Assembly: GCF_018977255.1 (NCBI RefSeq)
Contig: NW_024704742.1
Span: 76,014,001 to 76,078,000, forward strand
Source: Callorhinchus milii
Taxonomy: Eukaryota
Length of the DNA stretch: 64,000 nt
Direction: 5' to 3'
This document shows positions 2,881 to 58,449 of the stretch, piece after piece (position 1 is the stretch's first letter; the number at the start of each line of letters is the position of its first letter). The notes beneath the pieces are model-generated. The model was given only the letters and a program-made list of their open reading frames with translations, did no database searches and was not told the origin of the DNA. The position numbers were made by a program, and so were the translations under genes.

Positions 2881-3239
2881 GCAGTCCACATTCCTTATGT
2901 GAAGAAATCTTTTCTGGCTTCACTGTTAAACCAGTTTAATGTTTACAATACAAAATTATATTTGTATAGTGCCTTTCACAGTATTTGATATCCCATCTAA
3001 CAAGCTAGGACTGTTAAAGTGATTTTTAATATTCCACTCTAGAGAACTAGTGTTGCCAATGTTCACTTGATTTTTTACTTTTTCGGTTTTGTGGTGGAGT
3101 GAAGTATAATACATTTCTTGGATTTGGTATAATACCTCATCAAGTCATCAATATGTCTCAAAGCGCTTCACAGTATTTGCTGTAGTGTAGCGACTGTGTA
3201 CTTGTAGGCGAGTGCAACAGCCAATCTGCCACAACAACA

Positions 3240-3552
3240 ATAATAATAATAATCCTTGCATTTGATATAGCGCTTTTCACGTCGGGAGGACGTCCCAAAG
3301 CGCTTCACAGAACACACTGTAAAGTGAATTGACTGTATATTTGTGGGCGAACGCGGCAGCCAATTGTGTACAGCAATGTCCCACAAACAGTCGTGGATTG
3401 AAAATGACCAATTTATTATTGTTTTTGTTTTTTTGGAGGGATTATTATTAGGCTCTGTGTGGAGTAAGGAAACTTGCCCAAGGTTTCGTCCTGCCTGGAA
3501 TTGAATTCAGGTCTCTCACTTGCAAAGCGAGCGCTCTAACCACTGAGCTACA
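3240..3552 (-). mobile_element. SINE family A, full length
   Basis: Near-identical to the reverse complement of 51603-51912. Confidence 0.92.
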
Positions 3553-3554
3553 AT

Positions 3555-3785
3555 AACCCACAACCAGCTATAAAGTGAATGACCAAATTTTATCTGGAGG
3601 TTTGTTGGTCAGGATGTTGGGAGAAACTCCTTTCTCTATTTAAATAGTGCTGTTGGGTTCTGATCAGATAGATGGGGCTTCTGTTTAACGTCTCACTTGA
3701 AGGGTGGCACCTCTGGCAATGCAGCGCTGCGCAAGAGTCAATCTATCTATGAGCTCAAAGTCCCAAACATGAGGCTTGAACCCAT
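3555..3785 (-). mobile_element. Deu-domain SINE (family B), interrupted by the young SINE at 3240-3552
   Basis: tttaacgtctcacttgaagggtggcacctc is the reverse complement of the Deu core. Confidence 0.7.
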
Positions 3786-4384
3786 GGGGAAACTATTTTA
3801 CTGATATGCTTGATTCACCAATGGTTTAGCCACTGGGAGGACACATTGTGGCAATGACCAACAGTGACATACACTAAGAGACTGTCTACTCCTTTACCCT
3901 GCAATCAACACTTTTAGTCTTTTTGGAGACTAATTGTGAGTTTTCATGTTACTTGCAATTGTATCTTGACCTCAGTTCATAAAAAGCATTTGCCACCCAC
4001 ATACAGATTACCCATAGACTGCAAGCTCAACATTTTTTCCCCCTGTCAGTGTAACCACAACCAACATTCAGGCACTTCGTAATGAATTAAAAACAAATTC
4101 CATTGAAATAGATTCATTTTCAATTTGTGCTAATGTCCAAGCCGGCTGCCTGAAATTTCCCTAATCGGGTGACATGACAGAGCCACTTTGCTGTCTCCAT
4201 CCTGTTAAGACAGCAGGTAAACAGCTATTGGTGTTGAAGCACACATCTTGCAGACCCAATCCCTGGGGAATGGAATTCTACCTGCTCGGTTCCTGTTCAC
4301 TCTGAAAGCTCTAACTGATAGTGTAACCCAATGTTCCTAGCGCTCTCAAGGGCAAGTTACATGGTTAACAGCATTCCAATACAC

Positions 4385-4590
4385 ACTTGGGGATTGTCCA
4401 AGCCTTGGCTCTTGCCAACCAACACCTAAACGTTGTGGGCTGCATCCCTCAAGGGAGTGAAAGCGCATTCCATTCCAGACACAGGAAAATTTACACGAGC
4501 GTGTGGAACTCTCAGCAGTTTAGCTGGGAGACTCTTAAGCATGGTAATGGGTTTCTCTATGTTTTAGATACCTGACCGACAAACAAACCA
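4385..4590 (+). repeat. Element X copy Q
   Basis: Blocks ccaagccttggctcttgccaacc, cattccattccagaca, tgtggaactctc and tcttaagcatggtaat. Confidence 0.85.
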
Positions 4591-4640
4591 ATAAATAAAT
4601 AGCCCCGTCTAATCATGCAGTTCAAACCAGTGCCCCTCAC

Positions 4641-4717
4641 CTGGTCCTTTTCTGGCTTGTCCGAGATGTCATTCATGCTTCCAGTAGCCATGCTGCGATG
4701 GGAAGAGCCAGGGCTGC
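4641..4717 (-). CDS. SLC4A4: SLC4A4-type coding exon, 77 nt: (G)SPGSSHRSMATGSMNDISDKPEKDQ
   Basis: Acceptor ccttacccccaccctcgcag|GC AGC, donor CAG|gtgagg. NDISDKPEKDQ is identical to NBCe1. Confidence 0.96.
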
Positions 4718-5944
4718 CTGCGAGGGTGGGGGTAAGGAAAACCAATGCCACCAGTTAAAACACGGCTCCCAACTCCTGGAGAATAACCTGCCAACTCAAC
4801 TTCAAAAGAGACATAGAAAGCATGCAGTTTTAAAAAGAGATTTAGTAAGGAAACAATGAAAAGAAAAGGGTTACAAATTCCGTGTTTTTATAATGCAATT
4901 TTGCCTTTTCCTCAAAGTAGTTTTAGTATGAAAGCATGGGGTATTTTTATGAAAGCAATGAAAAGAGAAAAGTTGGCCATCACCCGAGCTTGTTCAGGAA
5001 ACCAACAAACTATAATCAGAATGAACTCCCACTGACCATGTAAATTGCATTGATACTTCACTACAAGCTACGATAACACAGCTGCGTACTAAAAATTAGA
5101 GCAGTCAAAAATATATACTATATATTATATATATTAAACAGGTCATTTGCAGCAGCACCTCTCTGCCCTTGTGGTTTACACCCTCCCCATCAGTGTTTGA
5201 AAATGATCAAGCAAGAAATTGCTATTCAATCCTGCCTTAAAATCTCTCTTCAGCATTAAGGTGAACACAGATTTAGAACTGGGGCCACAAGCTAATGGTT
5301 CTTTCATTTTAATAGAGTGTACAGTATACATTTGTTTAGAACTTCAATTGGATTCAATTATGAGTGTCTTGTCCTTGGTGTTGTTTTAATGGTTGGGAAG
5401 CGATACTGTTTGCCTTAAATTTCCATTTCCCTCCCCACAGACACATAGCATTGGCTTATTTATTGCTCTTTGCAAAACACAGATGAGTTAAACTTGCCCT
5501 GGTGTAAATTAAAAGGTCAGAAAGACTGTGAAGGGTGGTGCTGTATTGTGAGTCAGATAGCTTGGTTTCTGTGCTCTGCCCAGGCTGAGATAGCCTTTCA
5601 GACACCCATATCTGTCTGCGTCCTCTCCAGAAACCCCTTCTGGAATTTGCATTTAAAGGGACAGTGCTGTCTGGGTAAAGCAACAGCAAAAGGCTTCATT
5701 ATACCAGAAGAAGGTGCGACACAATTGGTAGCACAAAGACATAATTATTTCTTCAATCTATCCACTGGAAATTTGTTCTTTTTATAGTTTGTTTTAAAGT
5801 AATGCCCCGCTCTCATTTCCACTTTCTTCCAGGTAGTGACTAGCCCTGAGTTACATTGGCTCAGGGATCTTCTGGTAGTTTATGGGACATTGGACACAAT
5901 TGTGCTGCCATGTTTGCCTAAAAATACACAATCAGTGCATTTCA

Positions 5945-6080
5945 TAGGAACATAGGAACAGGAATAGGCCATTCAGCCCATCGAACCTGTTCTGCCATTT
6001 AACTAGATCATGGCTGATTTATATCTTTACCAGAATTTCAAATCCAATTTCCCGCTTTCTTCCCGTATCCCTTAATACCC
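5945..6080 (-). mobile_element. CR1 3' tail (LINE or CR1-dependent SINE)
   Basis: ataggaacataggaacaggaataggccattcagcc...agatcatggctgat; same family as 34195 and 16215. Confidence 0.75.
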
Positions 6081-6821
6081 CGACACGGTAATTCACAGTA
6101 ATTCCTGTGATGCATTCTGAGACGTTCTTCTGATGTTGTAAGGCCCTTTACCAAATAAAACGATAATTATGATTATTATTATTTAACCCAAGTATCTAAT
6201 CCTCCTCTGTGTGAGATGAGAGCACGCAGTCTATCATAAAAATTGGCAACTCTGCATTATGGATTGGTAATGGGATTTTTACGGATTACTGCTTGATGTG
6301 TCCCAGTGGGCGTCAGTTAGTTATTAAACTGTGGGGACATCACAGGTGAGGCTGGTTCTGGGTTCACACATTTCAAGTGGGGAGGGGAGCAATCACTCGT
6401 TTGTGACTCTGATGACTCAGAAGTTTTTTTAAAAATGTTTGCCATGGTAGGAATTGTGTGTGCAATACAACCACGCAATGTATGTCCGATGCAACTGTAC
6501 TGCGTGTGGATAAGTATGCTGCTCGTGTGATGCAACAATGCTGTGTGTGTATATATACAGTAGAACTGTACGACTTGTGCATGATGGCGCCAAACTGTGC
6601 TCTCTGACTTGAAAGTGATAGAGTTTTGGAGCAAACTCTTCCTGTCTGTTCCAAGGACTGATGGTCCCCCCAAAAATGTAACCGGACCACCTTATAGTTA
6701 CAACCGGGTGTAAATTAATCCAATTGGCACTTGTCTGGTAAGACTTCTTATAACAACTATTACCTAATATTCTACCCACACCACCACCGTTGTATATTAT
6801 TATTGGCATATGTGGACTTAC

Positions 6822-6917
6822 TGAGCCATCCCATGCTTGGGCTCGGCTGGACTCGGAGTTCCTCATCTGAGCTGCGAAATGTTAGGCAAGGCACAGAGTT
6901 CTCAAGTGGACTGCAAG
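6822..6917 (-). CDS. SLC4A4: Putative 96-nt in-frame cassette exon: (A)CSPLENSVPCLTFRSSDEELRVQPSPSMGWL(S)
   Basis: Donor CTC A|gtaagt has a full intronic consensus. The acceptor aaag|CT is the first AG after a ~70-nt AG-free, pyrimidine-rich tract. Phase 1-1 fits between the 11795 and 4717 exons, with no stop codon. Confidence 0.65.
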
Positions 6918-7287
6918 CTTTTTGGAGGCCGTCAAAGCAAAGTGGAGTGTGATACAGCGGCAAGGCGAGGTGAAAGAGAAAGAAAAATCTAGCAATAGCA
7001 GGTGCATCAATTTAGAGCAAAAGGGACAGTGCTTGCAACTCAAAGATAAAAGAGAAATCAATAAGTGCAGTAGCTTGATCACTGGACTCTGTCATTAGAT
7101 TCACAGATATATGAAGTAGCCCATAAATTACCCTTCACCTCTGATCACAACGCTTATGACATTTTATCAACCAAGACCTTACACAAGTTGCGAGTCAAAT
7201 CTTTGCTTTCAGATACGAAAGCAAGCATGTATATGTATAAACTATAGGTAATTCCAAATGGCTTCAAAATATTTTAGTCATGATATG

Positions 7288-7430
7288 GGGAGAGTGTGCG
7301 CATTCCATTCCAGATACAGACAAATATTTATGTGTAGGAGGGAGGCATGCTTGGAGCTCTCAGTCTGGTTTGGGTACACTTAAGCATTGGTAATGGATTT
7401 CCACATGTGTCAGACACTCGGCTGACAAAG
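7288..7430 (+). repeat. Element X copy R (3' part only)
   Basis: Blocks gcgcattccattccaga, tggagctctc, cttaagcattggtaatgg and gctgacaaa. Confidence 0.8.
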
Positions 7431-9579
7431 AGAATCATAGATATTTATAAAACGTAATGAAAAAGATGTGTTGTTTGGTCTTGGTTAATAAGCTTAACAG
7501 CCCAAGACAAATTAAGATATAAAACTGTTGCATACCCTTAAGTTGAAGTACTTTACAACCACATATTGAAGTGATTAGGTTAATTTTGCAAACTAATTTA
7601 GTTAAGATACTGAAATACATTGATAAGGAATCTGATACACAATTTAGGGCTCCTTTGGATAATATGACAATAATCCTTGCATTTGATATAGTGCCTTATC
7701 ACGTCTTCAAGAAGTCTCAAAGCGCTTCACAGAATATACTGTAAAGTGAATTGACTATATATTTTGTGGGCGATAATGCAAGTATCTGGTGCCAACTCCA
7801 TACAGACGGAATCAGCTTCAAGAGCAGAGTTCCCATAGGCTGTAGGGATTTTGTATTAAGAAACCCAATTTAGAAATCATACATTTTAATTATTTGAAAA
7901 AAAATCGACTGTTTTTTTCCTAGATGTTATTAGATACATCTTTCCTGCAGTGAAGTACCCATCACACTAACAACTGAAGGATATGCAACATAAAACCGCA
8001 TATAAAAAAAACTGATCAATAGCATTGGAAGAGATAATCAACTTCAATAAAAGAGATTGAAAAGAGTGTGGTGTGGCAATGAGATACTGGTGTCCAATCA
8101 CTGTGAACAACCAGCAATGCGTCTTTTCATGTATGGCATTCATACCCAAACTGATTTCTAGGTGTTTGACTGGCTCTAAATGTTATCCCTCTAATCTGGA
8201 TAACAACTGCATGCTATAGTCCAGACTTGTTCAATGAATAAGCAATGTTCCACAATTTGATTACACTGAAGAGCTCACAGAAATATTAATAAGAAACTTT
8301 CTAACACTGGTGATACTTTACAATTTACTGTTGTTTGGTAGATTTCTTTTTTTTCTTTTTTAAAAAAAAGCCTGTGAAGCACTATTCAAAAATTTTCTAA
8401 TTTGGGCATAAAGCTGATGATTTGCATAATCTCCAGGGAAATGCGTTGGCTCAGCAGTAACTGTCGGGCTTCAGCACTTAGTTAAGTGACCATGAAAGGG
8501 AGTAAAGAGCAAATAGTTTAGAAGGATTGGTTCCCACCAGGTACAGTATTAACCTCAATGGGGTCAGTCGCAGTGGTATGGGTAAACCAGTACAGATGGG
8601 GAAAGCAGCTAGAGTTCAGGATGCCTGTTACCTGTTCTGAGGATTCATGCAGGCCCTTAAATGTCGAGGGTGGACAGGTTTGTACAATTATTACCCTGTG
8701 ACAGGGGCTGAGAGGGCATGGCCGCCATAGGAGGATTTAGAAGAATAACAACAAATTACATTTGTATAGAACCTTTCACGTTGGGAGGACACTGGACAAG
8801 AACAAGTCAGGGGTGGGTGAGTGGAGAAGAGACAGTAGATAAGAGAAACATTCAAGACTGGGACCAATTTCATCTTCATAAAGAATTAGGATTTATGGAA
8901 GGGAAAAGAAAAGTTTGATATGTCAGAGGAAACCATACTCTTTGAACCACAGGAAAACAGGCACCAAAAGAGGCCTTTCAGCACCCCAAGTCTGTTCCAC
9001 CAATTTATTAGATCTTTCCAGATCTTTTAATTCCTACCACAGTTTTAAGTCCACATAATGGTTTTAACTTGGGATAAGGGATTTTGCAAGTTAGAATTCC
9101 TGCCAGAAGCCCTTCCTGCACCAGGGAACTAAGTACACATATAATTGCCAATTTCCAGGGGTTGGGAGGGCATTATGCAAGGTGGCATTATTTAAGGCAC
9201 AGGAGGACATGTGCAATTTTACTTCAGTTCCTTTTGTAAATCAAAAGAAGGAACACATCAAGGAACGCAGCTCATTTTGTCTCTTATGTCTTTGAGCAAT
9301 TGAAAGAAGCACCATCATCCTCTGTGAAAGAGTATGAAGGAGATCAATGTTTAGTTACTCAGTCAGAGGGCAAACTTCAGTTAAAGAGTAAATAGGGCTG
9401 AATGATGAACAGAGGCGATCCTTACTGTAAGGAAGTAAAATGGGAGAGAAAGAAAGAATCCAGGGGAAACCTGGCATGATGATGAACTATTAATTACAGT
9501 ACAACATTGAGAAGAAACAAGACAACCATGAACTTTGGGAATATTGTTTGGAATTTTAGGTTCAAAATAGGCCTTCCCA

Positions 9580-9990
9580 AAGACTGCCTGGGGTGAAAGG
9601 CTGGGTAAATGTGAGTTATATTCCCCAGAGCCAAAAGGTTTTAGAGCTAACTAATTGAGGGGTCTAAAATAATGAGATAAATTGACAAGCTGCATTGGAG
9701 GAAGCTCTAAAGGAACTTTGTAACAATTTGATATGATCTTAAAATTAGAGCTAAAATAGTTCAAAGTGTGATGAGAAACCATTTTTTGACTCAAAGCACA
9801 GTGAAAATATGTATTGCACTATCCCAGAAGTGTTTGGGATTTTAACAGGAAGATGCATAGATATTTGGGATTTAGGCTATTTAACTGTATGAAAACCCGG
9901 ATGGGAAATGGGGTTAAAATATCGGGCATGATCTAATACATGGCAGATAGGCTCAATGTGCTGAATGACTAACTCCTGTCTTTATGCAGA
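9580..9990 (+). mobile_element. Old CR1 LINE 3' fragment
   Basis: Decayed 3' end gcagataggctcaatgtgctgaatgactaactcctgtc. Confidence 0.6.
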
Positions 9991-11794
9991 ATCAACCATT
10001 ATAATTATACAAGGGAGATTGATTTGTACTTGGAATTTAAGGCTACTAAAGAATTTTGGAAAAGATAGGAAGTTTGGATTAGAAAGGATAAAGAGGTGGA
10101 GCAGGCTCAATGCTTATTTCCTGTTCCTATGAAGGTTCCGATATTGTCCCCTGATCTGTGCTCAGTTAACTCACTTCAGCCATAATGATTGTGAGGTGCC
10201 AATATCTCCGTGTTAGGAAGTCCCTGGGGGAGAAACGGGGTAAAGCAAAGTTTACCGTCCAGGCTCACACATTAATTAAAATGAAACTTCGAATGTGTAC
10301 ATTTTTCTCATAATTTTAAACTTTCTATTCTATCCAATTCAGAGCCTCTTCGCTAAGTACATTCCTAGTTTAACATCAAAATCACACACTGAGGATCAGC
10401 CAGTCAATCACCCTTCAGTTTTAGAATTCAGAAATATAGTGACATGAGCTCTGAGAGAGTGATCCCCATGTCTTGGGTAATTTTAAAGCGCTTTGATAGT
10501 GTGCATTTAGAATGGAAAACCCATTAACTATAGGCAGCATAAACTACTGTGCATGCAAGCAGCCTTACTCTCGAACTTCAGAATAATGGGATGTCCCTTC
10601 CAGAGTGAAATTACTGAAGTCAATTATTAGTCAGTGAAGGGTGGAAGAGGGGCAAAGATTTATACTGTACAATTGTCCTGGAGCAACAGTGGTGAGGTAT
10701 TGGTTCAAAGGGTGCAGCACAGGAGTCTGACTAACAAAGCAGGGCAATGGGAATAATTGCAAGTCATGCTGTTTTAAGTTCACAGACGTATAACTTTTTG
10801 CTTTGCCTGCCATGAATTATTAACTCAAAGTAATAACCAATCTTCTTAAATTCTCCAGCGTCTATCTACTGAGGAGTGGCTTCAAATGACAGATATTTTT
10901 CATTTCAAAGCCATTTTACCATTTCAATTTTGACAGCAGCATTGTAATACACAATAGCCACCGATTAATTTCTGCTTATTGCTCTTCATGCTGATATTTT
11001 AGAAATAGGAGAACAGGATTAAAGCGCTCAATAAACTATTGACTCTCAGAGTGAAGACAGTGTATGACAAAGGCCATACAACTGAAGGGTGTTATCATAC
11101 AATGCACACTGGAGGTCAACTACAACCAATCTCTCTATAATAACTACAGACTATCAGTCTGTGCTTCTATTAACTGGAATAAATGTATGTAGACATCTTG
11201 CTGCAACATATGATCCACAAGTGGCATTTGTCGAGAATTTCTCATGTCAAAAGATCGCTTTTGCCCTGCCTATTTATTATGCTCAACATTAACGCTTATT
11301 CTCCTATCAGTATTTCCATTTCTTTTTTCTTCTCTTCCCCTTTTATGTTTCTCCAGGACCACGGACCGTTGCTGTCCCTAAGTATCTAGTTTACACCCCA
11401 TGGAATACAATGAACAATATAGGTCTCAGTTAAACAAAGTTTAACTTGAGGGACACAAACAAGTCGTGGTAACTCTTAATACTGGATTTTTGTCCTGTCT
11501 TCTCCCACTATCCATTCTCTCTAAATACTATTTCTGGCAATGTTGTGGGGATGGCGGTGAATGGTTAAGTGACTGAGCAATATGTAAACACTTAGACTGG
11601 AACCTGCAGGGAGATAATTTGTTAATCTAACACTTGTGCTGTTAAGTATTAGACTGAAGTTTTGACAGTAGAAGATTTCATCCCATGGTAGGAGATCATA
11701 CATGGAGTTAATGAGAGGACATTAGTAATGTGATGTGCCAAGATGTAGATGGGAGGAGAAAGAGGTGACTGCAGCAAATTGGCACCTGCATTAC

Positions 11795-11821
11795 CATTAT
11801 CTGAGGTGGAAAACAGCCTAC
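11795..11821 (-). other. SLC4A4: 27-nt (9-codon) alternatively spliced segment equivalent to NBCe1 cassette I, defined by an internal 5' splice site
   Basis: Internal donor GCA A|gtaggc with GT at 11821-11820, exactly 27 nt upstream of the main donor and in the same phase (1). Confidence 0.65.
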
Positions 11822-11974
11822 TTGCACTGGATACCGTCTTTCCGATCTCAGCCAGTGACCGTAGGTTAGATTTCTTAGTCTGGTGCCGATGCCTTCGTAA
11901 GAGAGTATACATCACTTTCTCCTTTAGGTCTGGTTTCAGAAGACCACTTTTAATCTGACTCTCAATGATCATCT
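11795..11974 (-). CDS. SLC4A4: SLC4A4-type coding exon, 180 nt: (E)[59 protein letters not shown](G)
   Basis: Acceptor tttgtttgtgttaacag|AG ATG, donor AAT G|gtaatg. [24 protein letters not shown] is diagnostic of NBCe1. Confidence 0.97.
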
Positions 11975-12259
11975 CTGTTAACACAAACAAAGAGAAAGTG
12001 TCAATATCCTTTTTAGGAAAAAAAAATCATGTTTGATTTCAGTGGAGTTAAAGCATTTGCATTAAGCACCAGCTAAAATTTTACAACTGACTCTTTATTA
12101 TACACCAGATAGAAACATAACATTTCTTCACTAATCCTCTGACCAGTTCCACCCCTCCACCACAACCCCTCCATCCACCACCCTCCCCCACCCCCAGACC
12201 ACCCACCCCGCACCCAGGCAGCACATCAGTACAAAATGTATCCACATGACCGAACGCAC

Positions 12260-12420
12260 CTATAACCAGAGGGAGAGTAGAAGCTTCCAAGTCCAGCAAA
12301 ACTGTTCCCTTCTCTATACACGTTCGAAGTTCAAATAAACTGTGCAATGATAGTGTGGCCACATGAGGCTTACTCCATCTCTCCCCGCCCTCTTCAACCT
12401 TCTCCTCAAATTTGATCCAT
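12260..12420 (-). CDS. SLC4A4: SLC4A4-type coding exon, 161 nt: [53 protein letters not shown]
   Basis: Acceptor ctctgtttttcccactag|A TGG ATC, donor ATA G|gtgcgt. Carries the SLC4 family [14 protein letters not shown] motif; phases fit both neighbours. Confidence 0.97.
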
Positions 12421-13747
12421 CTAGTGGGAAAAACAGAGAAAACAACTGTAACACTTTTAGAACTGACAAAGGACCGACTTGGCTCAGACAGGTGTCCTCA
12501 GAAAAGTTGACACAGAATTGTTTATATTTACTAATTTCACTTAACACCTTATTAATCTACATGCTATATTGTGATTTTAGAGAATCACAAAATCTTATAA
12601 TGATCCTTGCATTTGATATGGTGCTTTTCACATCAGGAGGACCCCTCAAAGTGCTTCAACAGGATTTACGGTAAAGTGCACTTTGCAAGCAAACACGGCA
12701 GCCAGTTTGCATTCAGCAATGTCCCACAAACCCCCATTAAGTGAATGGATAATACTTTGCCAGGACACAGGGAGAAACTTCCTTCTCTTTATGAAGAGAG
12801 CCACAGGCACCTCCAATATTGCATCACCCCCCCAGCACTGTACTGGAATGTCAACATCAACTGTATGAGTTCAAAGTCCCAACATGAGGCTTCAACCCGA
12901 AAGATTAACAGTATAAAAGGAGAGCATTCAGCCCATTGTGCCTGTGCCAGGTCACTGAAAGAGCATCCATTTAGCCTCACACTCTGTCTTTTCCCCAATC
13001 GTTTCCCTTTTAATATCTTTATTTTTCAAATACTTCTCAAATTTCTTTTAAAGTGTATTCCATGGATTCCTCTTCAGCCACCATTTTGGAAAGGAATTCC
13101 ATGTGCTAGTAACCCTCCATGTAAAAAAAATCTTCTAAATTCTCTCTGAATTTTTTTTTGATGGCGATTATAAATTTATTCATACTCTATTTTGTAAATA
13201 TATCAATGTCGTACCCTGAGTGGATCTATCAGTATTTAATGATTCACTCTGTAAATGTATCCGCACATTAAATGAATGAGCCTTTTCATTCTGTACTTTC
13301 CGTTGAACTGCTAAATACTCTGTACAAACACGAGAAGTGAAATACAATACGTCCGCTTCATGTTACGGAGTGTGGCAACTCAGGGCAACTCAGTATGAGT
13401 GGATTGTTTGAATGACAACTAATCACTCCTTCCCTCAACATTCAATATGTCCTACACTTCTTAATCATTAACTGTAAGTCAATTACTTTGATCAACAGGA
13501 CTTGGAATTACGTAAGTGACTGTTTGTAAAAGATCAATTGCCTTGACTGGACAAACAGGCAAATCCTACTTGTGGGCCAAGGAGAAAACAGATTTTGCGA
13601 TTGCTCCTTAAATCATGAAAGGTAAAACAAATGGCGTGCTCAACCTGTAAAGTTAAAAGCAAATCCAGCGTGATTGGAATTGAAAATAAAATAAGTCATT
13701 GCATTAAAAACAAAATAGCGTTTGACATTTGATCTGAAAATACAATA

Positions 13748-14038
13748 TAATAATCCTTGCATTTGATATAGTGCTTTTCACATCTTCTAGACGTCTCAAA
13801 GTGCTTCACAGAATACACTGTAAAGTGAATTGACTGTATATTTGTGGGTGAAATGCAGCAGCCAATTGCACCCAGCAGTGTCCCACAAACAGTCGTGGAT
13901 TGAAGTGACCAATTTATTATTGCTTTATTATTATCAGGAATGTGGAGTAAGGAAACTTGCCCAAGGTTTCGCCCTGCCAGGAATCGAACCCAGGTCTCTC
14001 GCTTGCGAAACGAGTGCTCTAACCACTGAGTTACAGGA
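13748..14038 (-). mobile_element. SINE family A, full length
   Basis: Same head, body and tail as the other family A copies. Confidence 0.9.
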
Positions 14039-14498
14039 GAACAACAACAAATAGAAAAAATGAAGCAGATTGGAGGGAACCATTGTCTGGAAGTCAGAGG
14101 GATGTTCTGCCCCAAGATTTAGTGTTAAATAATAACAACAATTTGCACTTATATAGCACCCTCCACGTAGAGTATCGTCTCAGAGCGCTTGAACACAAAA
14201 TGATGGCAGATTCTGCCATATAATAATAATCCTTGCATTTGATGTAGTGCCTTATGTCATTCAGACGTCTCAAAGTGCTTCACAGAATAAATTGTAAAGT
14301 GAATTGACTGTGTATTTTGTGGGCGAAATACAAAAATACAAAATTATGGCAGGTTCTGTCCGTATGATAAAATAGCACCAGTGGTAGTTATCTGCACAAT
14401 AGTTAAAACCTCCAAAATGTAATCCCCAACATGTATTAGACGGGAAAGCAGAGGTAATGCAAAATTACTTTTTCTTATCCTTGACCGTTCTTCCGCTC

Positions 14499-14556
14499 TT
14501 ATAATAATAATAATAATAATAATAATAATCCTTGCATTTGATATATATATATATAT
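14499..14556 (+). repeat. (AAT)n SINE-tail microsatellite followed by (AT)n
   Basis: Seen directly in the sequence. Confidence 0.9.
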
Positions 14557-14794
14557 TTTATATTTTATGATCAATCAATATAAAATTAACAAGTATAGAA
14601 CAATTTTGAGAGCATTGCAGTTTTCAACAAAACACATCCATAAAGACTCATTACCTTTGGTTTTGTTTCCATAAAACTAAATGGTTGAACAACTGCTTTT
14701 CCTAAGCCTTGTTTTTTGGTAATCAAATACAAGGCGCAGCTCAAAGCCTGCATGTCAGTCGTAAAGGGCACAACTGCTTTGTACAACTTCCAAA

Positions 14795-14890
14795 TAATAA
14801 TAATCCTTGCATTTGATATTAACATTTCACCCTGCTGGGAATCGAACACAGGTTTTTCGAGTGATATAACCACTGAGCTACAGGATTCCA
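14795..14890 (-). mobile_element. SINE family A, internally deleted (head joined to extreme tail)
   Basis: The tail taataatccttgcatttgata lies directly next to the head tttcaccctgctgggaatcgaac...accactgagctacagga. Confidence 0.7.
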
Positions 14891-15439
14891 CTATGTAGGA
14901 CCTGAATGTAACTATTTAACAAATAAGGAAGTAGTTTTAACCCTAAACAAGGAAACTGCTTAAGTGACAATACTACATTCTTTGCATTTTGCAAACTTTT
15001 TAAAGAAATTTAGTGTGTCCAATTCTTTTTTCTAAATATTCTCCCCGCTGTTTGTGCCTCTCTGCTCCTGGTCTGACTTCCTCATTCTGGGGTATGGTTT
15101 ACAGGCACTGGTTGCCCTCTGATACTCACCAAAGTGGTCTTGGCAGCGAATATCAGCAAGCCACTAGACACCAGCTGAGCCTGGCCTGACCTCTCCCCAC
15201 CCTGCTCTCCACACATAAGCACTACTAGTCCAGGGTGTCTAAGACGGACAAGGAGGAGAAATCCTGGATTTCACTTCCCTCACTCTGTGGAGGACAACTT
15301 ATCCTCCCCATGCAACCTTGACTAAAACCAGCAAACTTAGGATAGTCCAGGATTCGAGCCAGCCAGCTCCTAGTAAGTAAGCTGCAATACACCATCAGGA
15401 TTACCTAGTCCATTTTCTTAAGAGGTAAGTTATTGGTAC

Positions 15440-15572
15440 CTGGCAGTCTCTTTCCATTCCATCTCTTGTCCGTCAACAGCCAAAAGTTCATCCAGTTCTG
15501 TGAAGAGCTGAGGAGCTGGGCTCTCGTCATCTTCACCAAGGATGAAGCGGATCCTCTCAGCAACTGGAGAAA
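15440..15572 (-). CDS. SLC4A4: SLC4A4-type coding exon, 133 nt: (L)[43 protein letters not shown](R)
   Basis: Acceptor ttttcactcctgtag|TT TCT, donor GCC AG|gtacca. Near-identical to NBCe1 [45 protein letters not shown]. Confidence 0.97.
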
Positions 15573-15604
15573 CTACAGGAGTGAAAATACCGCTGATGAG
15601 TGCT

Positions 15605-15815
15605 TGAGTTTTGTTTTGGTCAGCCTGGTGGTATACACAGAAACCTATTACCATGCTTAAGATTATCCAAGCCATCGAGAGTTCCACATATGCATGAAAA
15701 TATCTTTGTCTGGAATGGAATGTGCACTCACTCCTCGGAAGGACCCACCCAACTTACCTAATCCTGGACAGTATTAGCGCAGGTTGGCAAGAGCCAAGGC
15801 TTGGGGACCCCAGAC
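15605..15815 (-). repeat. Element X copy P, inverted relative to copies Q and R
   Basis: Its reverse complement shares perfect 23-, 16-, 12- and 16-nt blocks with 4398-4548. Confidence 0.85.
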
Positions 15816-21124: not shown

Positions 21125-22550
21125 AGTCTCAAACGACATTCTCTCTATCTGTGACCAGAGCTCCCTCTGCCTCCTTGTTCTCCTGGACCTCTCCGCCGCT
21201 TTCAAATTGTCGATCACGCCATCCTCTTCCACCGCCTTTCCTCTGTCATCCACCTCAGTGGGACAACACTCGCCTGGTTCGAGTCGTACCTCACAAACCG
21301 CCAGCAGTACATCTGCACAAACGGCTTTTCCTCTCGCTCTCACCCGGTCACCTGTGGAGTACCCCAAGGATCCATCCTTGTCCCCCTCCTCTTTCTAATC
21401 TACATGCTACCTCTTGGGGATGTCATCTGCAGACGTGGGGTACACTTCCACATGTATGCGGATGACACCCAACTCCATTTTTCCACCTCACTTTGCAACC
21501 CCTAGTCCCCTGATGTTCTGTCAGCCTGCCTGTCAGACACCAGGAGCTGGATGAGTGCGAATTTCCTTCAGCTAAATGTTGACAAGACAGAAGCCATACT
21601 CTTTGGCTCTCATTAACATATTAAATCGCATGGTTCTCACCTGCTCCACCTACCCAACCTCCCCCTAAAACTCTCCAAACCCGTACTCAAACTAGGTGTC
21701 AGGTTCAACTCCCGAACTATCCTTCCTCCCCCACATCCGGTCCCTCACCAGCACCGCTTTCTTCTTCCACCTCCGACACATCGCCCATTCCCGCCAATAC
21801 CTCTCCCAAACAGCTGCTAAAACCCTGGTCCATGCCTTTGTCACCTCTCGGCTGGACTATTCAAATGGCCTCCTCTCCGGTCTTCCCTCCACTACCATCC
21901 ATAAAATCCAGGTCATTCAAAACTCTGCCGTCCACATTCTCACCCGCACCAAACTCCGCTTCCCGATTACCCCAGTACTTGCCAGACTGGCAAAGAGAAG
22001 AGAAGACAGTCTTTACCGGTGTCCTGACCAACACTCCTCCAGATTAAATTGGGCATTCACACCATGGCTGTTTGTGGGACATTGCTGCCCCGCACCAAAC
22101 TCCGCTCCCCGATCACCCCAGTCCTTGCCAGACTGCACTGGCTGCCTATCCCAGAGAGGATCAACTTCAAGATCCTCACCCTTGTCTTCAAATTCCTCCA
22201 CTCCTCTGCACCCCCCTACCTCTCTGACTTCCTCTCTCCTCACAATAGTGCCTGTTGCCTTTGCTCCACCGGGTCTGGCCTCCTCCTTGTCCCCCAAGTC
22301 CTCCGCTCCACCATCAGCGGCCGTGCCCTCAGCCATTATGCCCCGAGTCTCTGGAACTCCCTTCCTCACTCCCTTCACCTCGCCCCCTCTTTTCCTATTT
22401 TCAGGTCTTGGCTGAAGACCTTTCTTTTTGACCGCACCTTTGGTCATCTTCCTCCCCCTCTCCCTGGTTCGGCCCTGGAATCCATTACTGTGAAGCTCTC
22501 TGAGACGCCGTCCGGCGTGGAGAACGCTATATAAATCCAAGTTGTTGTTG
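21125..22550 (+). mobile_element. L2 LINE fragment (RT domain to 3' tail), frameshifted, with an internal duplication and insertion
   Basis: Contains LVLLDLSAAF, GVPQG, FHMYADDTQL, SRLDYSN and LHWLPIPERINFKI motifs. Ends ctatataaatccaag(ttg)n. Confidence 0.92.
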
Positions 22551-30952: not shown

Positions 30953-31273
30953 TAATAATAATAATAATCCTTGTATTTGATATAGCGCTTTTCACGTCGG
31001 AAGGACGTCCCAAAGCGCTTCACAGAACACACTGTAAAGTGAATTGACTGTATATTTGTGGGCGAACGCGGCAGCCAATTGCGCACAGCAATGTCCCACA
31101 AACAGTCATAGATTGAAAATGACTAATTTTATTATTGTTTTTGGTTTTGGAGGGATTATTATTAGGCGTGTGGAGTAAGGAAACTTGCCCAAGGTTTCGC
31201 CCTGTGCCTGGAATTGAACTCAATTGTCTCTCACTTGCAAAGCGAGTGCTCTAACCACTGAGCTACAGGACTC
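30953..31273 (-). mobile_element. SINE family A, full length, young
   Basis: Near-identical to the reverse complement of 51603-51912. Confidence 0.92.
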
Positions 31274-32134
31274 CACATAAGATGGGGAGGGAAGGAGACA
31301 AGGCATTGGCCTCTGTGATGGGATTCCCGAGAGTGGGGCAGATTGGCTGGACGCTTGACCAATGATGGGGACGGGACAGGGTGGACTGGATGAGGATATA
31401 AAGCAGGCTGGTGCTCAAGCAAATGGAGTGGCTGGGTCAGTAGGGTTGCAGGAGATCACAGATATAGGTCGGGGCAAAACCTTTGAGGGATCTGACCGTG
31501 ATATAATAATAATAATTAAGATTGAATGAAAAAAATACACAATTCTGTGCGACAAAGTGGTACTTAGAACTGAGACTGAGACCTGGCTATGACCCCCACT
31601 GGGCCCTCCCCCAGTCAAACAATCTATTGACCCCCAAAACTGGGCTCACTGGCTGCAAGGTAGGCAGTCAGCACCTGTGGGATGGTAACATGGCACAAGT
31701 TGCCGCCTTCAGGAAAGGAATTTAAAAAAAGAGTAACTCATATCAGCAATGTCATAGTTTAAACTGCTTTAAACTTTGCACAGCGGTTGCAGTTGAAGGG
31801 GGTAGGAACATTTTACTGCCCCCTAGTGATTTAAGTTCTGTAAAACAGGGTGAAACAATTACAGTAGTTGGTTCTTTGTGGACAAAGAGTTTAGTCTGAA
31901 TCATTGTGCAGAATAATCCCTACATTCTCGTGTCTCATGTGACAGCGCTCTGTAGATTTTGAAAATGATTCCTGTCTGTTCGCTTGTTATGCTCAATCAA
32001 AAGCCCTCCTGTGCTTCAGTCCATGCCACAGCACAGCTGCAGCTGCTTGAGAATATTAAAGAGAGCCTCCACCCTTTTACAGAAAGGGGTCCGGCTCCAT
32101 TGAAAGAGAAACCCAACGCTGTGTAGCAAGTCCA

Positions 32135-42536: not shown

Positions 42537-43053
42537 TTTACATAGCATTTATATTTCCACTGAATTTTAATACCTTGGTGGATTCTTCCCTTGCATGAGA
42601 CCTGTGCTCTGAGACACTACCCCACACAAAAGGCACTTTATAAATGCAAGTTATTGTTATTGCTCTTAAATACAGCAACAGACTGACAAAGAGTTCCTTC
42701 GATGGGTCGCAAGCAGAACCTCTCCTTCTTAGAATTTCAGTAGAACATTATTAACATGTTCACTTATCTGCATCATGACCAAATGTAGAAATGGACGGGG
42801 ATGTGAGACACCAGCAAAATAGTCCAGTTGCATGTAATCTCACTGAACGACTGTGAGCCAATGGCATGAGTAAATTACGGGCCTAGTAACCATTCACGCG
42901 GTGAATTATTTACATAGCATTTATATTTCCACTGAATTTTAATACCTTGGTGGATTCTTCCATTGCATGAGACCTGTGCTCTGAGACACTACCCCACACA
43001 AAAGGCACTTTATAAATGCAAGTTATTGTTATTGCTCTTAAATACAGCAACAG
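42537..43053 (+). repeat. 145-bp direct duplication (42537-42681 and 42909-43053) around a 227-bp unique spacer
   Basis: The copies are identical except one substitution (ttcccttgc vs ttccattgc). Confidence 0.95.
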
Positions 43054-47950: not shown

Positions 47951-48127
47951 GAAGAGGTTTAAGAATGTGCCCATTGGTCGGGTCCTCATTATTTTCAGTG
48001 TCAGAGGCCTCGGCTGTCTTATCCCGTTCTTTGCTTCTCTCCTTTTGTGCAGACGTACGTCTTCTGTGGCGGCGCCGCCTCCGATAGCTCTTAGGGACGT
48101 GAACTCCAATGTAGACAGTGTGGTGGC
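47951..48127 (-). CDS. SLC4A4: SLC4A4/NBCe1-type coding exon, 177 nt, phase 1-1: (G)[58 protein letters not shown]
   Basis: Minus strand: acceptor ttctgcttgcag|GC CAC CAC, donor CTT C|gtgagt. Translation matches the NBCe1-B/C N-terminal [21 protein letters not shown]...ILKPL. This frame is absent from the ORF track. Splices in frame (C|TT) to the 15572 exon. Confidence 0.95.
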
Positions 48128-48289
48128 CTGCAAGCAGAACAAAGATGAACTCTCACAATGTCGTAATGTAAAGGCAAACCATACAAAACTTACACATGTG
48201 TTATATTACCTTGTCTTCCTACACACCTTATACAGATATTATATTACCCTGTATTCATACACGCCTTATACAGATGTTATATGGCACAG

Positions 48290-55885: not shown

Positions 55886-56984
55886 AAACCAGCTTCAAAA
55901 TGATATCTTATAAAATTCTTATTAAAATACTTATAATACATACGGGGGGGAACGCTGTTAGAAGTCTCATTTTTTTGATGAGGTGGTAAACCAGAATTTC
56001 CCAACTCTCTGTTCAGGCGAACAATAAAGATCTCAAGGTGCTATTCAAAATGAGAGGGAATTTCTTCCAGTGTCCAGACCAACAATCTTTAAAATAAAAT
56101 GGTCCGTCATCTCATCCCTGGTCACAAATAATCACCAAATTTACTTCTACAGACAGATATATTTTACAGCAATTACAGTAATGCACTAGGAGATGTTTCA
56201 ACATGAGAAGGTATTAAAAACATAGGAGTTTCTTTCAGACTAAATGCAAGAATTGCAATAAAGTTCTTTCTACTTCCCTTCATACTGAGAGAGCCTGACC
56301 CAGTCCCTACCCGCAATTCCTGCCCCTTGTTTACATGCATAGAATACCAACTAATCATACTAAAGCAAATTCTCCCGATACAGTAACAAAAGACTAATGG
56401 GGGAAATATAGATCTAGATTTACTCTATTTCTCTAGCATTTTGAGAGTGCAAATTGTTAAATTCAGTCTTAACTTTGAAGTCAATTTACTTTGGAATTTC
56501 CTCCTGTATATGTTAAAATAAAAAATCATAATGAAGCTCAGGAAAAAGTGGTTTTAGAAGGGGTAGGTAGGTAGAGCTTAACAAAAATATCTTAAAACAT
56601 GAATTACTTATTGATTTTAATGGTGCTGAACTCTAAATGAACAAACCAAGTAATCCGAGTGGGCAGAGGATGTGGCTATTTCGGTAAACAATTTTGTATT
56701 TCATTTAATACTGATTCCTCCACATCAAGTGTAGGATGTATTATACAGTATCTACTGTTTTTTGAGAGGTGAGCATAATATTTACCAGTGGAAAATCAGT
56801 GGTGAGCTCTGGAACACTTTCCCACTCTTGCCACTCAGTATCAAGGAACAGCAGCAACTTATGTACATATGCAAGTCTTTTCACATAGGATAAAAGTCTC
56901 AAATTGATTCACAAAATGAGAAATAATTAGAAATGAAGTAAATGTTGTTTATGAAGACAATGATGGCAATTAATTTGTTCCAGT

Positions 56985-57288
56985 AATAATAATAATCCTT
57001 GAATTTGATATAGCGCTTTTCACTTCGGGAGGACGTCCCAAAGCGCTTCACAGAATATACTGTGAAGTGAATTGACTCTATATTTGTGGGCGAACGCGGC
57101 AGCCAATTGCGCACAGCAATGTCCCACAAACAGTCGTAGATTGAAAATGACCAATTTATGATTGTTTTTGGTTTTGGAGGGATTATTATTAGGTGTGTGG
57201 AGTAAGGAAACTTGCCCAAGGTTTCGCCCTGCCTGGAATTGAACTCACTTGCAAAGCGAGTGCTCTAACCACTGAGCTACAGGACTCC
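56985..57288 (-). mobile_element. SINE family A, young, with a small deletion in the head
   Basis: Reverse-complement match to 51603-51912. Confidence 0.9.
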
Positions 57289-58449
57289 GTAATGTTTTTG
57301 TACAAACGACTATGAGATAACAACATACAAAATTGGTCATTCACTTCTTGGCTGTTCCTGGGATACTGCTATACACAAACTGCCTGTCGCAATCGTCTAC
57401 AAATACACAGTCACTAGACTTGACAGAAAAATTCTGTGAAGTGCTTTGAGATATCTCGACAACATGATGAGGTATTATATCAAATGTAAAGATTATTATT
57501 ACTGTCTATTATTGTAAAAGTAACAAGAATATTTTGGAGTGAATTTGGATAAGGGAAGGATGTTAATCTGGGCAACTGAAATAGATCTTCACTTTTCTTT
57601 GAACTAGAAGCACCAAACTCCTAACAACCACCTGAATCACAAGACAGGTGGGTCCCCAAGTTAAGTACCAGAAAAGGCTAGAGACACAGAGTGGCTCTGG
57701 AGCAACATGCTTTAACCTTAGCCTCTGAAGAACACCTCTTACGGCACCAGTGTGAATGATTCCATTTCCCACACCAGCGAGACCAAAGACTACACCTAGT
57801 CTTAGCCTGATAGACCAGAATTATGGAAAATTATTTATATAATCTTAATCCAGAAGATGGTTGACATCTTTTGAAAACTGGATGCAGTCTAACCAGTGAT
57901 TTGTACAAAGTAGCATTATCACCTTGCCTTTGTACTTTGGTATAAAACCCATTAACTATTAGTTCTCTTTACAGCTTTCGCCACTTGTGATGCCATATTC
58001 AATGTATCTGCATTCCCAAATTGTTAAATAAAATCATCTTAGAGGCTAAGATTAGATGCAATTTCCACTCAGCTGAGACTTCTAATTTAGTGACAATTGT
58101 GAGCAGTGTTACACTTTTGTCATAGGCCCATTCAGCCACTGCTCAAATTTATGTTGTTTATTCTGACCCTCCTTGAGGTTCTGATGTTTTGCTGGGTTAC
58201 GATTCCACCAGCTTCTTTAGAATCTCAGCTGAGTGCCCTTTCAGACCTGATAAGGCACTATACAGGTTGCAAGGAGAAAGTTTTTCTCTCTCTCTTCATC
58301 TCTTTCTATAGGATATGAAGGTCCTATCTGTCGATCACCTAGTAAGTAAAGGCACCATTGAGTGCAACACTGGATAATCCAGGCAGATGATGGATCTGAA
58401 TCACAAGGCAGATTGGACCTAGATTAAGTGTTTCCCAAGTCAAGTACCA

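Follow-up and report, generated by a model that had tools for sequence, protein, structure and literature searches.

A docking-site/selector system was reportedly described for Dscam exon 6 by Graveley in 2005. In mammals, the dimers that flank circular RNAs (circRNAs) are mostly young transposable elements that decay without special constraint, according to the available text of PMC8516420. Old, truncated inverted MIR pairs nevertheless drive some circRNAs, and three of the six tested were MIR-dependent; ciRS-7 is a MIR-dependent circRNA (both from the available part of PMC7371899). Inverted Alu pairs can loop out and skip exons, as stated in the accessible portion of PMC13019027. Among the retroposons of the elephant shark, CmiSINE (SINE2-1_CM and SINE2B-1_CM) and SacSINE1-CM are described as old, high-copy, non-autonomous elements in and around genes in the available sections of PMC5499810.

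The locus considered here lies in a window of 64 kb, by which we mean the whole stretch of Callorhinchus milii DNA analyzed, and resembles the inverted Alu and MIR cases in carrying inverted copies of one repeat in both introns flanking an exon block, near an acceptor and a donor. As in the MIR cases, the three copies (hereafter, P, Q, and R) are old and truncated, and several partners compete. It differs in that P and Q are only ~70% identical, in species and in repeat family, and in being a candidate locus known from sequence alone. With Dscam exon 6 it shares one site that has several possible partners in mutually exclusive pairings, but SLC4A4 has neither a cluster of homologous, mutually exclusive exons nor a layout of one selector per exon, and the "selectors" here are a repeat with ~90,000 extrapolated copies and conservation not above repeat background. 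P, Q, and R are very probably independent, old, 5'-truncated insertions of an abundant non-coding retroposon-like repeat, placed by chance and neutrally decayed, any effects on RNA being unselected.

The SLC4A4 exon block and the repeat copies around it

By its protein matches, the exon block belongs to SLC4A4 (NBCe1), a bicarbonate transporter gene. Human NBCe1 (6caa) was the top PDB match of the exon translations (E values of 1.6e-26 and 7.7e-22), and a UniRef protein of Callorhinchus milii (P0002) was 100% identical to one exon. Four minus-strand exons were delimited by tblastn with P0002 and by their splice sites, i.e., exon A (133 nt, 15572-15440), which ends in KETAR, has AG and GT splice sites and matches PDB 6caa, exon B (161 nt, 12420-12260), exon C (180 nt, 11974-11795), which also matches PDB 6caa, and exon D (77 nt, 4717-4641). 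These are distinct, non-homologous, and successive pieces of the conserved cytoplasmic N-terminal domain of NBCe1. They are contiguous in all 12 annotated isoforms of Callorhinchus milii, two of which lack RLFSTSDNG owing to an alternative donor inside exon C. The upstream SLC4A4 exon (47951..48128, minus strand), ending in HILKPL and likewise located by tblastn with P0002 and by splice sites, bounds a 32.4-kb intron (15573-47950) that has copy P at its end.

An in-frame cassette exon of 96 nt with a GTAAGT donor (6917-6822, minus strand) was recognized by tblastn and splice sites, and is homologous to an insert of teleost slc4a4a isoforms. It was matched by 16 proteins in tblastn versus 100 for exon C, the best match being P0020 (62% over 42 aa, E value of 1.2e-9), and it was found in none of the 12 annotated isoforms of Callorhinchus milii. 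The summed lengths of the exons defined by these splice sites are 474 nt for A to C, 551 nt for A to D, and 647 nt for A to D plus the cassette, which are exactly the loop-out lengths given in an initial annotation of this DNA. Looping out 551 or 647 nt would lose the reading frame, and looping out 474 nt would keep it.

All three copies were bounded with nhmmer using a full-length profile of the repeat. Copy P (16088-15602, minus strand; profile positions 144-637, E value of 9.5e-96) is 5'-truncated and sense on the pre-mRNA. Copies Q (4250-4588, plus strand; 219-629, 1.1e-36) and R (7287-7438, plus strand; 481-632, 1.4e-24) are antisense on the pre-mRNA, Q being 5'-truncated and R strongly so. 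The copies have their 3' end in common, at profile positions 629-637, and 5' truncation is the sole difference between them. The A-rich 3' end of P lies 30 nt upstream of the acceptor of exon A, the tail end of Q lies 53 nt downstream of the donor of exon D, and R precedes the cassette exon by 370 nt.

What the initial annotation had read from the sequence was confirmed by alignment, profile search, and splice sites, including three copies with P inverted relative to Q and R, exon bounds, spacings of about 30, 50, and 370 nt, and perfect blocks of 23, 16, 12, and 16 nt shared by P and Q at exactly the positions assigned to them. Its bounds for the copies were too short, and a further shared 11-mer (15943-15933 / 4305-4315) falls beyond those it drew for P and Q. 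What it took for a triplet has a fourth member, which lies in the same intron and the same orientation as Q, ~1.9 kb below the window start (locus L058, 8081-8266).

Identity and background similarity of the repeat family

The full repeat unit spans ~610-620 nt (~615 nt), with both ends sharp and an A-rich tail, and P, Q, and R correspond to its 3' part. A genome search with Q returned 531 first-look candidates, and all 40 that were scored matched, at 68-93% identity and on many contigs. Searching with the DNA directly 5' of the copy at another locus (L010) returned 6783 first-look candidates, and 12 of the 12 loci fetched from these continue straight into P/Q/R sequence. In a random genome sample of 15 stretches of 10 kb (the first 15 of 40 seeded positions; 149,998 bases), a total of 20 profile matches were detected in 10 stretches and covered 4393 bases (2.9%). 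The density in this 150-kb sample is ~1 insertion per 10-11 kb, from which we extrapolate a genome total of ~90,000 family copies. The element, called otherwise unexplained when the locus was first described, is a high-copy dispersed repeat by both the genome searches and the random sample, the latter putting it at ~3% of the genome.

A total of 46 more copies reaching the 3' end, from 44 loci scanned, had A-rich ends and starts scattered over profile positions 5 to 540. The three copies at SLC4A4 fall within 11.8 kb, where ~1.1 would be expected from the sample density (Poisson P(≥3) ~0.1), and the 64-kb window holds three versus ~6 expected, so local enrichment is absent.

The 3' end of the family reads GGCTGACC and is followed by a short A-rich run. 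Several tRNA-headed, L2-tailed SINEs of other families fill the window, and their tails are ATT repeats. An Rfam scan (E ≤ 1) of eight loci with full-length copies gave no tRNA, 5S, or 7SL match on the element, nor was there an Rfam match of these three kinds on P, Q, or R; A/B-box-like motifs were seen in the element by eye only. An exact-match search for target-site duplications in the flanks of 49 old copies with imprecise ends returned two chance-looking matches of 8-9 nt. Given no target-site duplications and no tRNA, 5S, or 7SL head, the assignment to the retroposon class is drawn solely from the tail and the pattern of 5' truncation, and the family is termed retroposon-like, not a proven SINE, because a Pol III head was undetected. 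Like CmiSINE and SacSINE1-CM, the family is old, high-copy, and in and around genes of the same genome, but it is ~615 nt long, has another 3' end, and has no Rfam tRNA head. The elephant-shark SINEs in the available text of PMC5499810 are other families.

Identity to the family majority consensus is 81.9% for P, 77.6% for Q, and 85.2% for R. Among themselves, the copies are 69.8% (P-Q, 311 columns), 72.8% (P-R), and 73.6% (Q-R) identical; the background is 72.4 ± 3.0% for P versus 56 other copies and 68.4 ± 3.7% for Q versus 51 others. As judged from these alignments, the similarity of all three pairs is at family background, with no apparent conservation above the repeat level. P and Q are both off-consensus at 18 positions versus 11.7 expected, a small excess, and have the same base at 9 of the 18. 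Their perfect blocks coincide with the best-conserved segments of the family (82-85% mean identity), and perfect blocks separated by divergent spacers are the pattern left by two decayed copies of one repeat. Selection for pairing was rejected as the source of the shared blocks, since these fall in the conserved segments of the family.

We infer that placement was by chance and decay neutral. The copies would have inserted independently into SLC4A4 introns and then decayed, which is the alternative that the initial annotation itself had named (chance positions of three copies from an ordinary old repeat), and this alternative matches the data for a family occupying ~3% of the genome.

RNA pairing between the copies and its possible products

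Since P is opposite in orientation to Q, R, and the fourth copy, imperfect stems between P and any of these are possible in the pre-mRNA. Duplexfold gave -308 kcal/mol for P:Q versus -182 ± 7 for 50 dinucleotide shuffles, and -113 kcal/mol for P:R versus -87 ± 5 for shuffles; the energies are strongly negative even for shuffles (-182), so only the differences carry meaning. The cofold gain over self-folding was -103 kcal/mol for P:Q, with 187 intermolecular pairs, and -51 kcal/mol for P:R. Both duplexes are thermodynamically feasible, and they overlap on P because all copies contain the same 3' part. When P was folded with the antisense of 22 other copies, the mean was -1.01 kcal/mol per nt, and with Q it was weaker (-0.91). 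The pairing first proposed for this locus stands in its geometry, its feasible folds, and its overlap on P, but any two copies picked at random from a common repeat would show as much.

The tails of Q and P face the exon block, so that a P:Q stem would begin only 30 nt away from the acceptor on one side and 53 nt away from the donor on the other. This geometry is unusually favorable for back-splicing.

Any circular RNA or exon skipping arising from such stems would be an unselected by-product, as with inverted Alu or MIR pairs. A stronger form of this, in which a circular RNA of 551 nt (exons A to D) is measurably favored by pairing of P with either Q or the fourth copy, with no selection implied, appears rather unlikely to us. 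The P:Q duplex is feasible near both splice sites, and the part of the 32-kb intron of P that lies in the window offers it no inverted partner from any family that could compete, although 90 inverted HSPs were detected inside this intron. Precedents are the MIR-dependent circRNAs (PMC7371899) and the loop-out skipping by inverted Alu pairs (PMC13019027), each as given in the available text, but the circularizing mammalian dimers are mostly young repeats in the accessible part of PMC8516420, and P and Q are ~70% identical. Reverse-complementary sequences are present in both introns flanking the exon block by alignment, profile, and folds, and P:Q ranks only 14th of the 26 inverted HSPs between these introns, below 13 pairs from other families. 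Four other cross-exon pairs were folded and had cofold gains of -163 to -639 kcal/mol, which makes P:Q the weakest. A linear product skipping exons A to D would shift the frame and then be degraded; skipping of this block was seen in none of the 12 annotated isoforms, and the papers searched had no mention of circSLC4A4 or of three variant spellings.

Functional alternatives and significance of the locus

In other vertebrates, a kidney-type (NBCe1-A-like) alternative first exon reads directly into exon A. We find it very improbable that P adjoins a remnant of such an exon, having disrupted it or supplying a transcript start. The open frame upstream of the acceptor reads SGIFTPVV, which resembles the RSIF(T/P)(S/V)AV ending A-type N-termini (human 6caa, bird, and teleosts), and it runs on into P and has ATG codons. 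The likeness, however, spans only ~8 codons, and these double as polypyrimidine tract and acceptor. A search for a Callorhinchus milii transcript or database protein spanning them gave none (P0002 came closest, with 83% query coverage), and 20 of the 20 named cartilaginous-fish proteins among the matches listed are B-type.

Very little probability likewise goes to a selector built from the repeat, in which P, flanking the acceptor of exon A on its branch-point side, would alternate between R on the one hand and Q or the fourth copy on the other, set the balance of the two products, and couple cassette choice with circRNA output. P:R pairing would give an in-frame loop-out or circle of 474 nt ending before the 96-nt cassette, and pairing of P with Q or the fourth copy would give a circle of 551/647 nt including the cassette.

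Hardly credible is an evolved switch on the docking/selector logic of Dscam, as the initial annotation had suggested, with P as docking site and Q and R as selectors choosing a 551/647-nt or a 474-nt loop-out. In its favor, the pairings overlap on P, and the cassette exon that R precedes by 370 nt is shared with teleosts. Against it, SLC4A4 lacks the tandem homologous, mutually exclusive exons that define the Dscam system (A to D are distinct and occur in 12 of 12 annotated isoforms), a 551- or 647-nt loop-out breaks the frame, the similarity of P, Q, and R is family background, at least a fourth partner exists in a family making up ~3% of the genome, and P:R, 4.9 sd beyond shuffles, gains just -51 kcal/mol.

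Read as chance insertions of an abundant repeat, the case is an ordinary one of common-repeat copies in introns, one of them inverted, and its value is mainly that of a worked negative. To our knowledge, circRNA biogenesis has been little studied in the Callorhinchus milii lineage. If P:Q pairing does drive circular SLC4A4 RNA, the locus would be another case of repeat-mediated back-splicing, and it would be of wider interest only if R competed in a regulated way.

A high-copy repeat family in SLC4A4 introns

Alignment shows the three stretches in the SLC4A4 introns (P, Q and R) to be copies of a single element; P is opposite in orientation to Q and R. The initial annotation left this element otherwise unexplained, and genome searches and a family profile now explain it as an ordinary, very abundant old dispersed repeat. 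An alignment of 31 copies placed the 3′ limit of similarity at a short A-rich run and carried the 5′ side past the bounds first assigned, and all-against-all comparison of 12 fetched loci revealed sharp ends ~610–620 nt apart. The profile, built from 11 full-length copies, has exactly three matches in the window at E ≤ 1, i.e., P (16088-15602, minus strand; profile positions 144-637), Q (4250-4588, plus strand; 219-629) and R (7287-7438, plus strand; 481-632). All three stop at a common 3′ end but are truncated to different extents on the 5′ side, and 46 further copies reaching the 3′ end start at scattered profile positions from 5 to 540. Given that a shared 3′ end with variable 5′ truncation is a signature of retroposition, the ends suggest that the family spread in this way, its class being not fully settled. 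Some randomly sampled copies carry the 5′ half only, no target-site duplications were recovered at the flanks of family copies, and Rfam gave no match to a tRNA, 5S or 7SL head on the family. It differs from CmiSINE and SacSINE1-CM of the elephant shark, which are described as tRNA-headed and L2-tailed (PMC5499810).

A genome-wide search for copies, as initially proposed, showed the element to be high-copy. A search of 991.5 Mb in 1762 contigs with Q returned 531 first-look candidates on many contigs, and all 40 that were scored matched (68–93% identity). With the sequence immediately 5′ of one long copy as query, 6783 candidates were returned (81–84% identity), and 12 of 12 loci fetched from these continue directly into P/Q/R sequence. 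In 15 randomly placed 10-kb stretches (taken in order from the start of a list of 40 seeded positions), 20 profile matches (E ≤ 1e-3) fell in 10 stretches and covered 4393 of 149,998 bases (2.9%). Merged by eye, they represent 14–15 insertions, or one per 10–11 kb, which extrapolates to roughly 90,000 copies in the genome; another 5–6 copies lie in sequence flanking the first 29 loci. At this density ~6 copies are expected in the window, so that the three present are fewer, not more, and by our own arithmetic the Poisson probability of three copies inside the 11.8-kb span is ~0.1. The three copies are present with P inverted, as initially described, but the set is incomplete: a fourth (8081-8266, plus strand, of the flanking DNA fetched as L058; profile 443-634, E 2e-26) lies ~1.9 kb below the window start, in the intron and orientation of Q and ~840 nt from the next exon.

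The window is also crowded with other, younger SINE copies (3238-3562, 13739-14045, 30953-31277, 56981-57291 and many more), built of a tRNA-like head, a conserved core and a tail of ATT repeats. They run in either direction, and complementarity between their arms reaches 97%. An Rfam tRNA match at 13969-14040 (43.8 bits) is the head of one of them. These copies may belong to the CmiSINE/SacSINE1-CM families (PMC5499810). An open frame at 21155-21505 (plus strand), within the 32-kb intron, carries reverse-transcriptase-like motifs (…GVPQGSILVPLLF…YADDTQL…) and probably represents a fragment of a LINE. Two 59-nt stretches (42604-42662 and 42976-43034; grouped as family D18), spaced 372 nt apart, match at 100% identity and may reflect a recent local duplication within a repeat.

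Complementarity of P with Q and R

The initial observation of complementarity is accurate, and its perfect blocks are exact: 23 nt (P 15804-15782 / Q 4398-4420), 16 nt (15722-15707 / 4466-4481), 12 nt (15688-15677 / 4502-4513) and 16 nt (15662-15647 / 4533-4548), with one more shared 11-mer beyond the bounds first assigned. The perfect blocks fall within the best-conserved segments of the family (82–85% mean identity in 37–46 copies). Based on the alignment of all copies to the profile, P and Q are 69.8% identical over 311 columns, compared with 72.4 ± 3.0% for P against 56 other copies and 68.4 ± 3.7% for Q against 51. Identity to the family majority is 81.9% for P, 77.6% for Q and 85.2% for R. 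P and Q both depart from the majority at 18 positions (11.7 expected under independence), sharing the same base at 9 of these. No conservation of P and Q above the family background was found in this within-genome comparison.

Folding, also proposed initially, placed both duplexes beyond 50 dinucleotide shuffles (of Q in the case of P:Q), at −308.2 kcal/mol versus −181.6 ± 7.2 for P:Q and −112.8 versus −86.6 ± 5.4 for P:R. Per nucleotide, however, P:Q (−0.91) is weaker than the mean for P paired with 22 unrelated family copies in antisense (−403.5 ± 54.9, or −1.01 per nt), indicating that P would pair as well or better with almost any genomic copy. Among 26 inverted BLAST matches between the in-window part of the downstream intron and the upstream intron, P:Q ranked 14th by score. 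Cofold gains were −103.4 kcal/mol for P:Q and −50.7 for P:R, and −163 to −639 for four of the stronger inverted pairs. P:Q pairing is nothing special against the family background.

The SLC4A4 exons between P and Q

Exon translations identified the minus-strand gene as SLC4A4/NBCe1: they matched human NBCe1 (PDB 6caa) at E 1.6e-26 and 7.7e-22, other SLC4 members being far worse, and a UniRef protein labelled as Callorhinchus milii (P0002) matches one exon at 100% identity. Bounds set by tblastn and splice sites define exons A (15572-15440, 133 nt), B (12420-12260, 161 nt), C (11974-11795, 180 nt) and D (4717-4641, 77 nt), all on the minus strand, and the lengths of 474 and 551 nt first reported for A–C and A–D are exact. 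The preceding exon ends at 47951, giving a 32.4-kb intron closed by P, and the following exon falls outside the window, below its start (L058 7237-7076), giving an intron of ~7.4 kb for Q. Skipping A–D (551 nt), or A–D with the cassette exon (647 nt), loses the frame; the only in-frame loop-out, that of 474 nt, would remove 158 residues of a conserved cytoplasmic domain.

The cryptic cassette initially proposed is real: a 96-nt in-frame exon (6917-6822, minus strand; ACSPLENSVPCLTFRSSDEELRVQPSPSMGWLS) whose donor, GTAAGT, is strong. An insert homologous to it occurs in 16 fish proteins (teleost slc4a4a isoforms; best match P0020, E 1.2e-9), compared with 100 proteins matching exon C. All 12 annotated isoforms of Callorhinchus milii lack the cassette, which looks like an ancient alternative exon overlooked by annotation. 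Two of the 12 isoforms (P0123 and P0127) lack RLFSTSDNG (11795-11821, minus strand), implying that exon C has an alternative donor 27 nt inside it; the loss matches the mammalian NBCe1 variants with a nine-residue deletion. Just before the acceptor of exon A, and adjoining the tail of P, an open frame (15573-15600, minus strand) reads SGIFTPVV, resembling the end of the kidney-type (A-variant) N-terminus, RSIF(T/P)(S/V)AV, of human 6caa, a bird and teleosts. No A-type protein was found among Callorhinchus milii proteins or 20 named cartilaginous-fish entries.

The defining feature of Dscam-type selection is an array of homologous, mutually exclusive exons with one selector per exon. The analogy first drawn with Dscam fails here, as SLC4A4 has no such array: exons A–D are successive, unrelated and included in 12 of 12 annotated isoforms. 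The P:Q and P:R pairings do overlap on P and exclude each other as first described, which is a trivial consequence of the 3′ part shared by all copies. With pairing at background and the array absent, a competing-pairing switch is not supported.

Possible back-splicing

P:Q is the pair nearest to splice sites; other cross-exon pairs are 1–30 kb off. Both tails point toward the exon block, which would put the base of the stem at 30 nt (acceptor) and 53 nt (donor), in line with the distances initially given. No inverted partner of P, of any family, was found in its own intron within the window. In PMC7371899, inverted pairs of old, truncated MIRs were needed for ciRS-7, circCDK8 and circSPNS1; the remaining three circRNAs that were tested did not depend on MIRs, and stability of pairing mattered. 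Across five mammals, the dimers flanking circRNA exons are mostly young repeats that decay without special constraint (PMC8516420). In the literature searched, neither circSLC4A4 nor any of three variant spellings appeared. A material contribution of P:Q to any detectable circle or skipping seems unlikely to us. The inverted arrangement offers a plausible, though unproven, unselected substrate for back-splicing.
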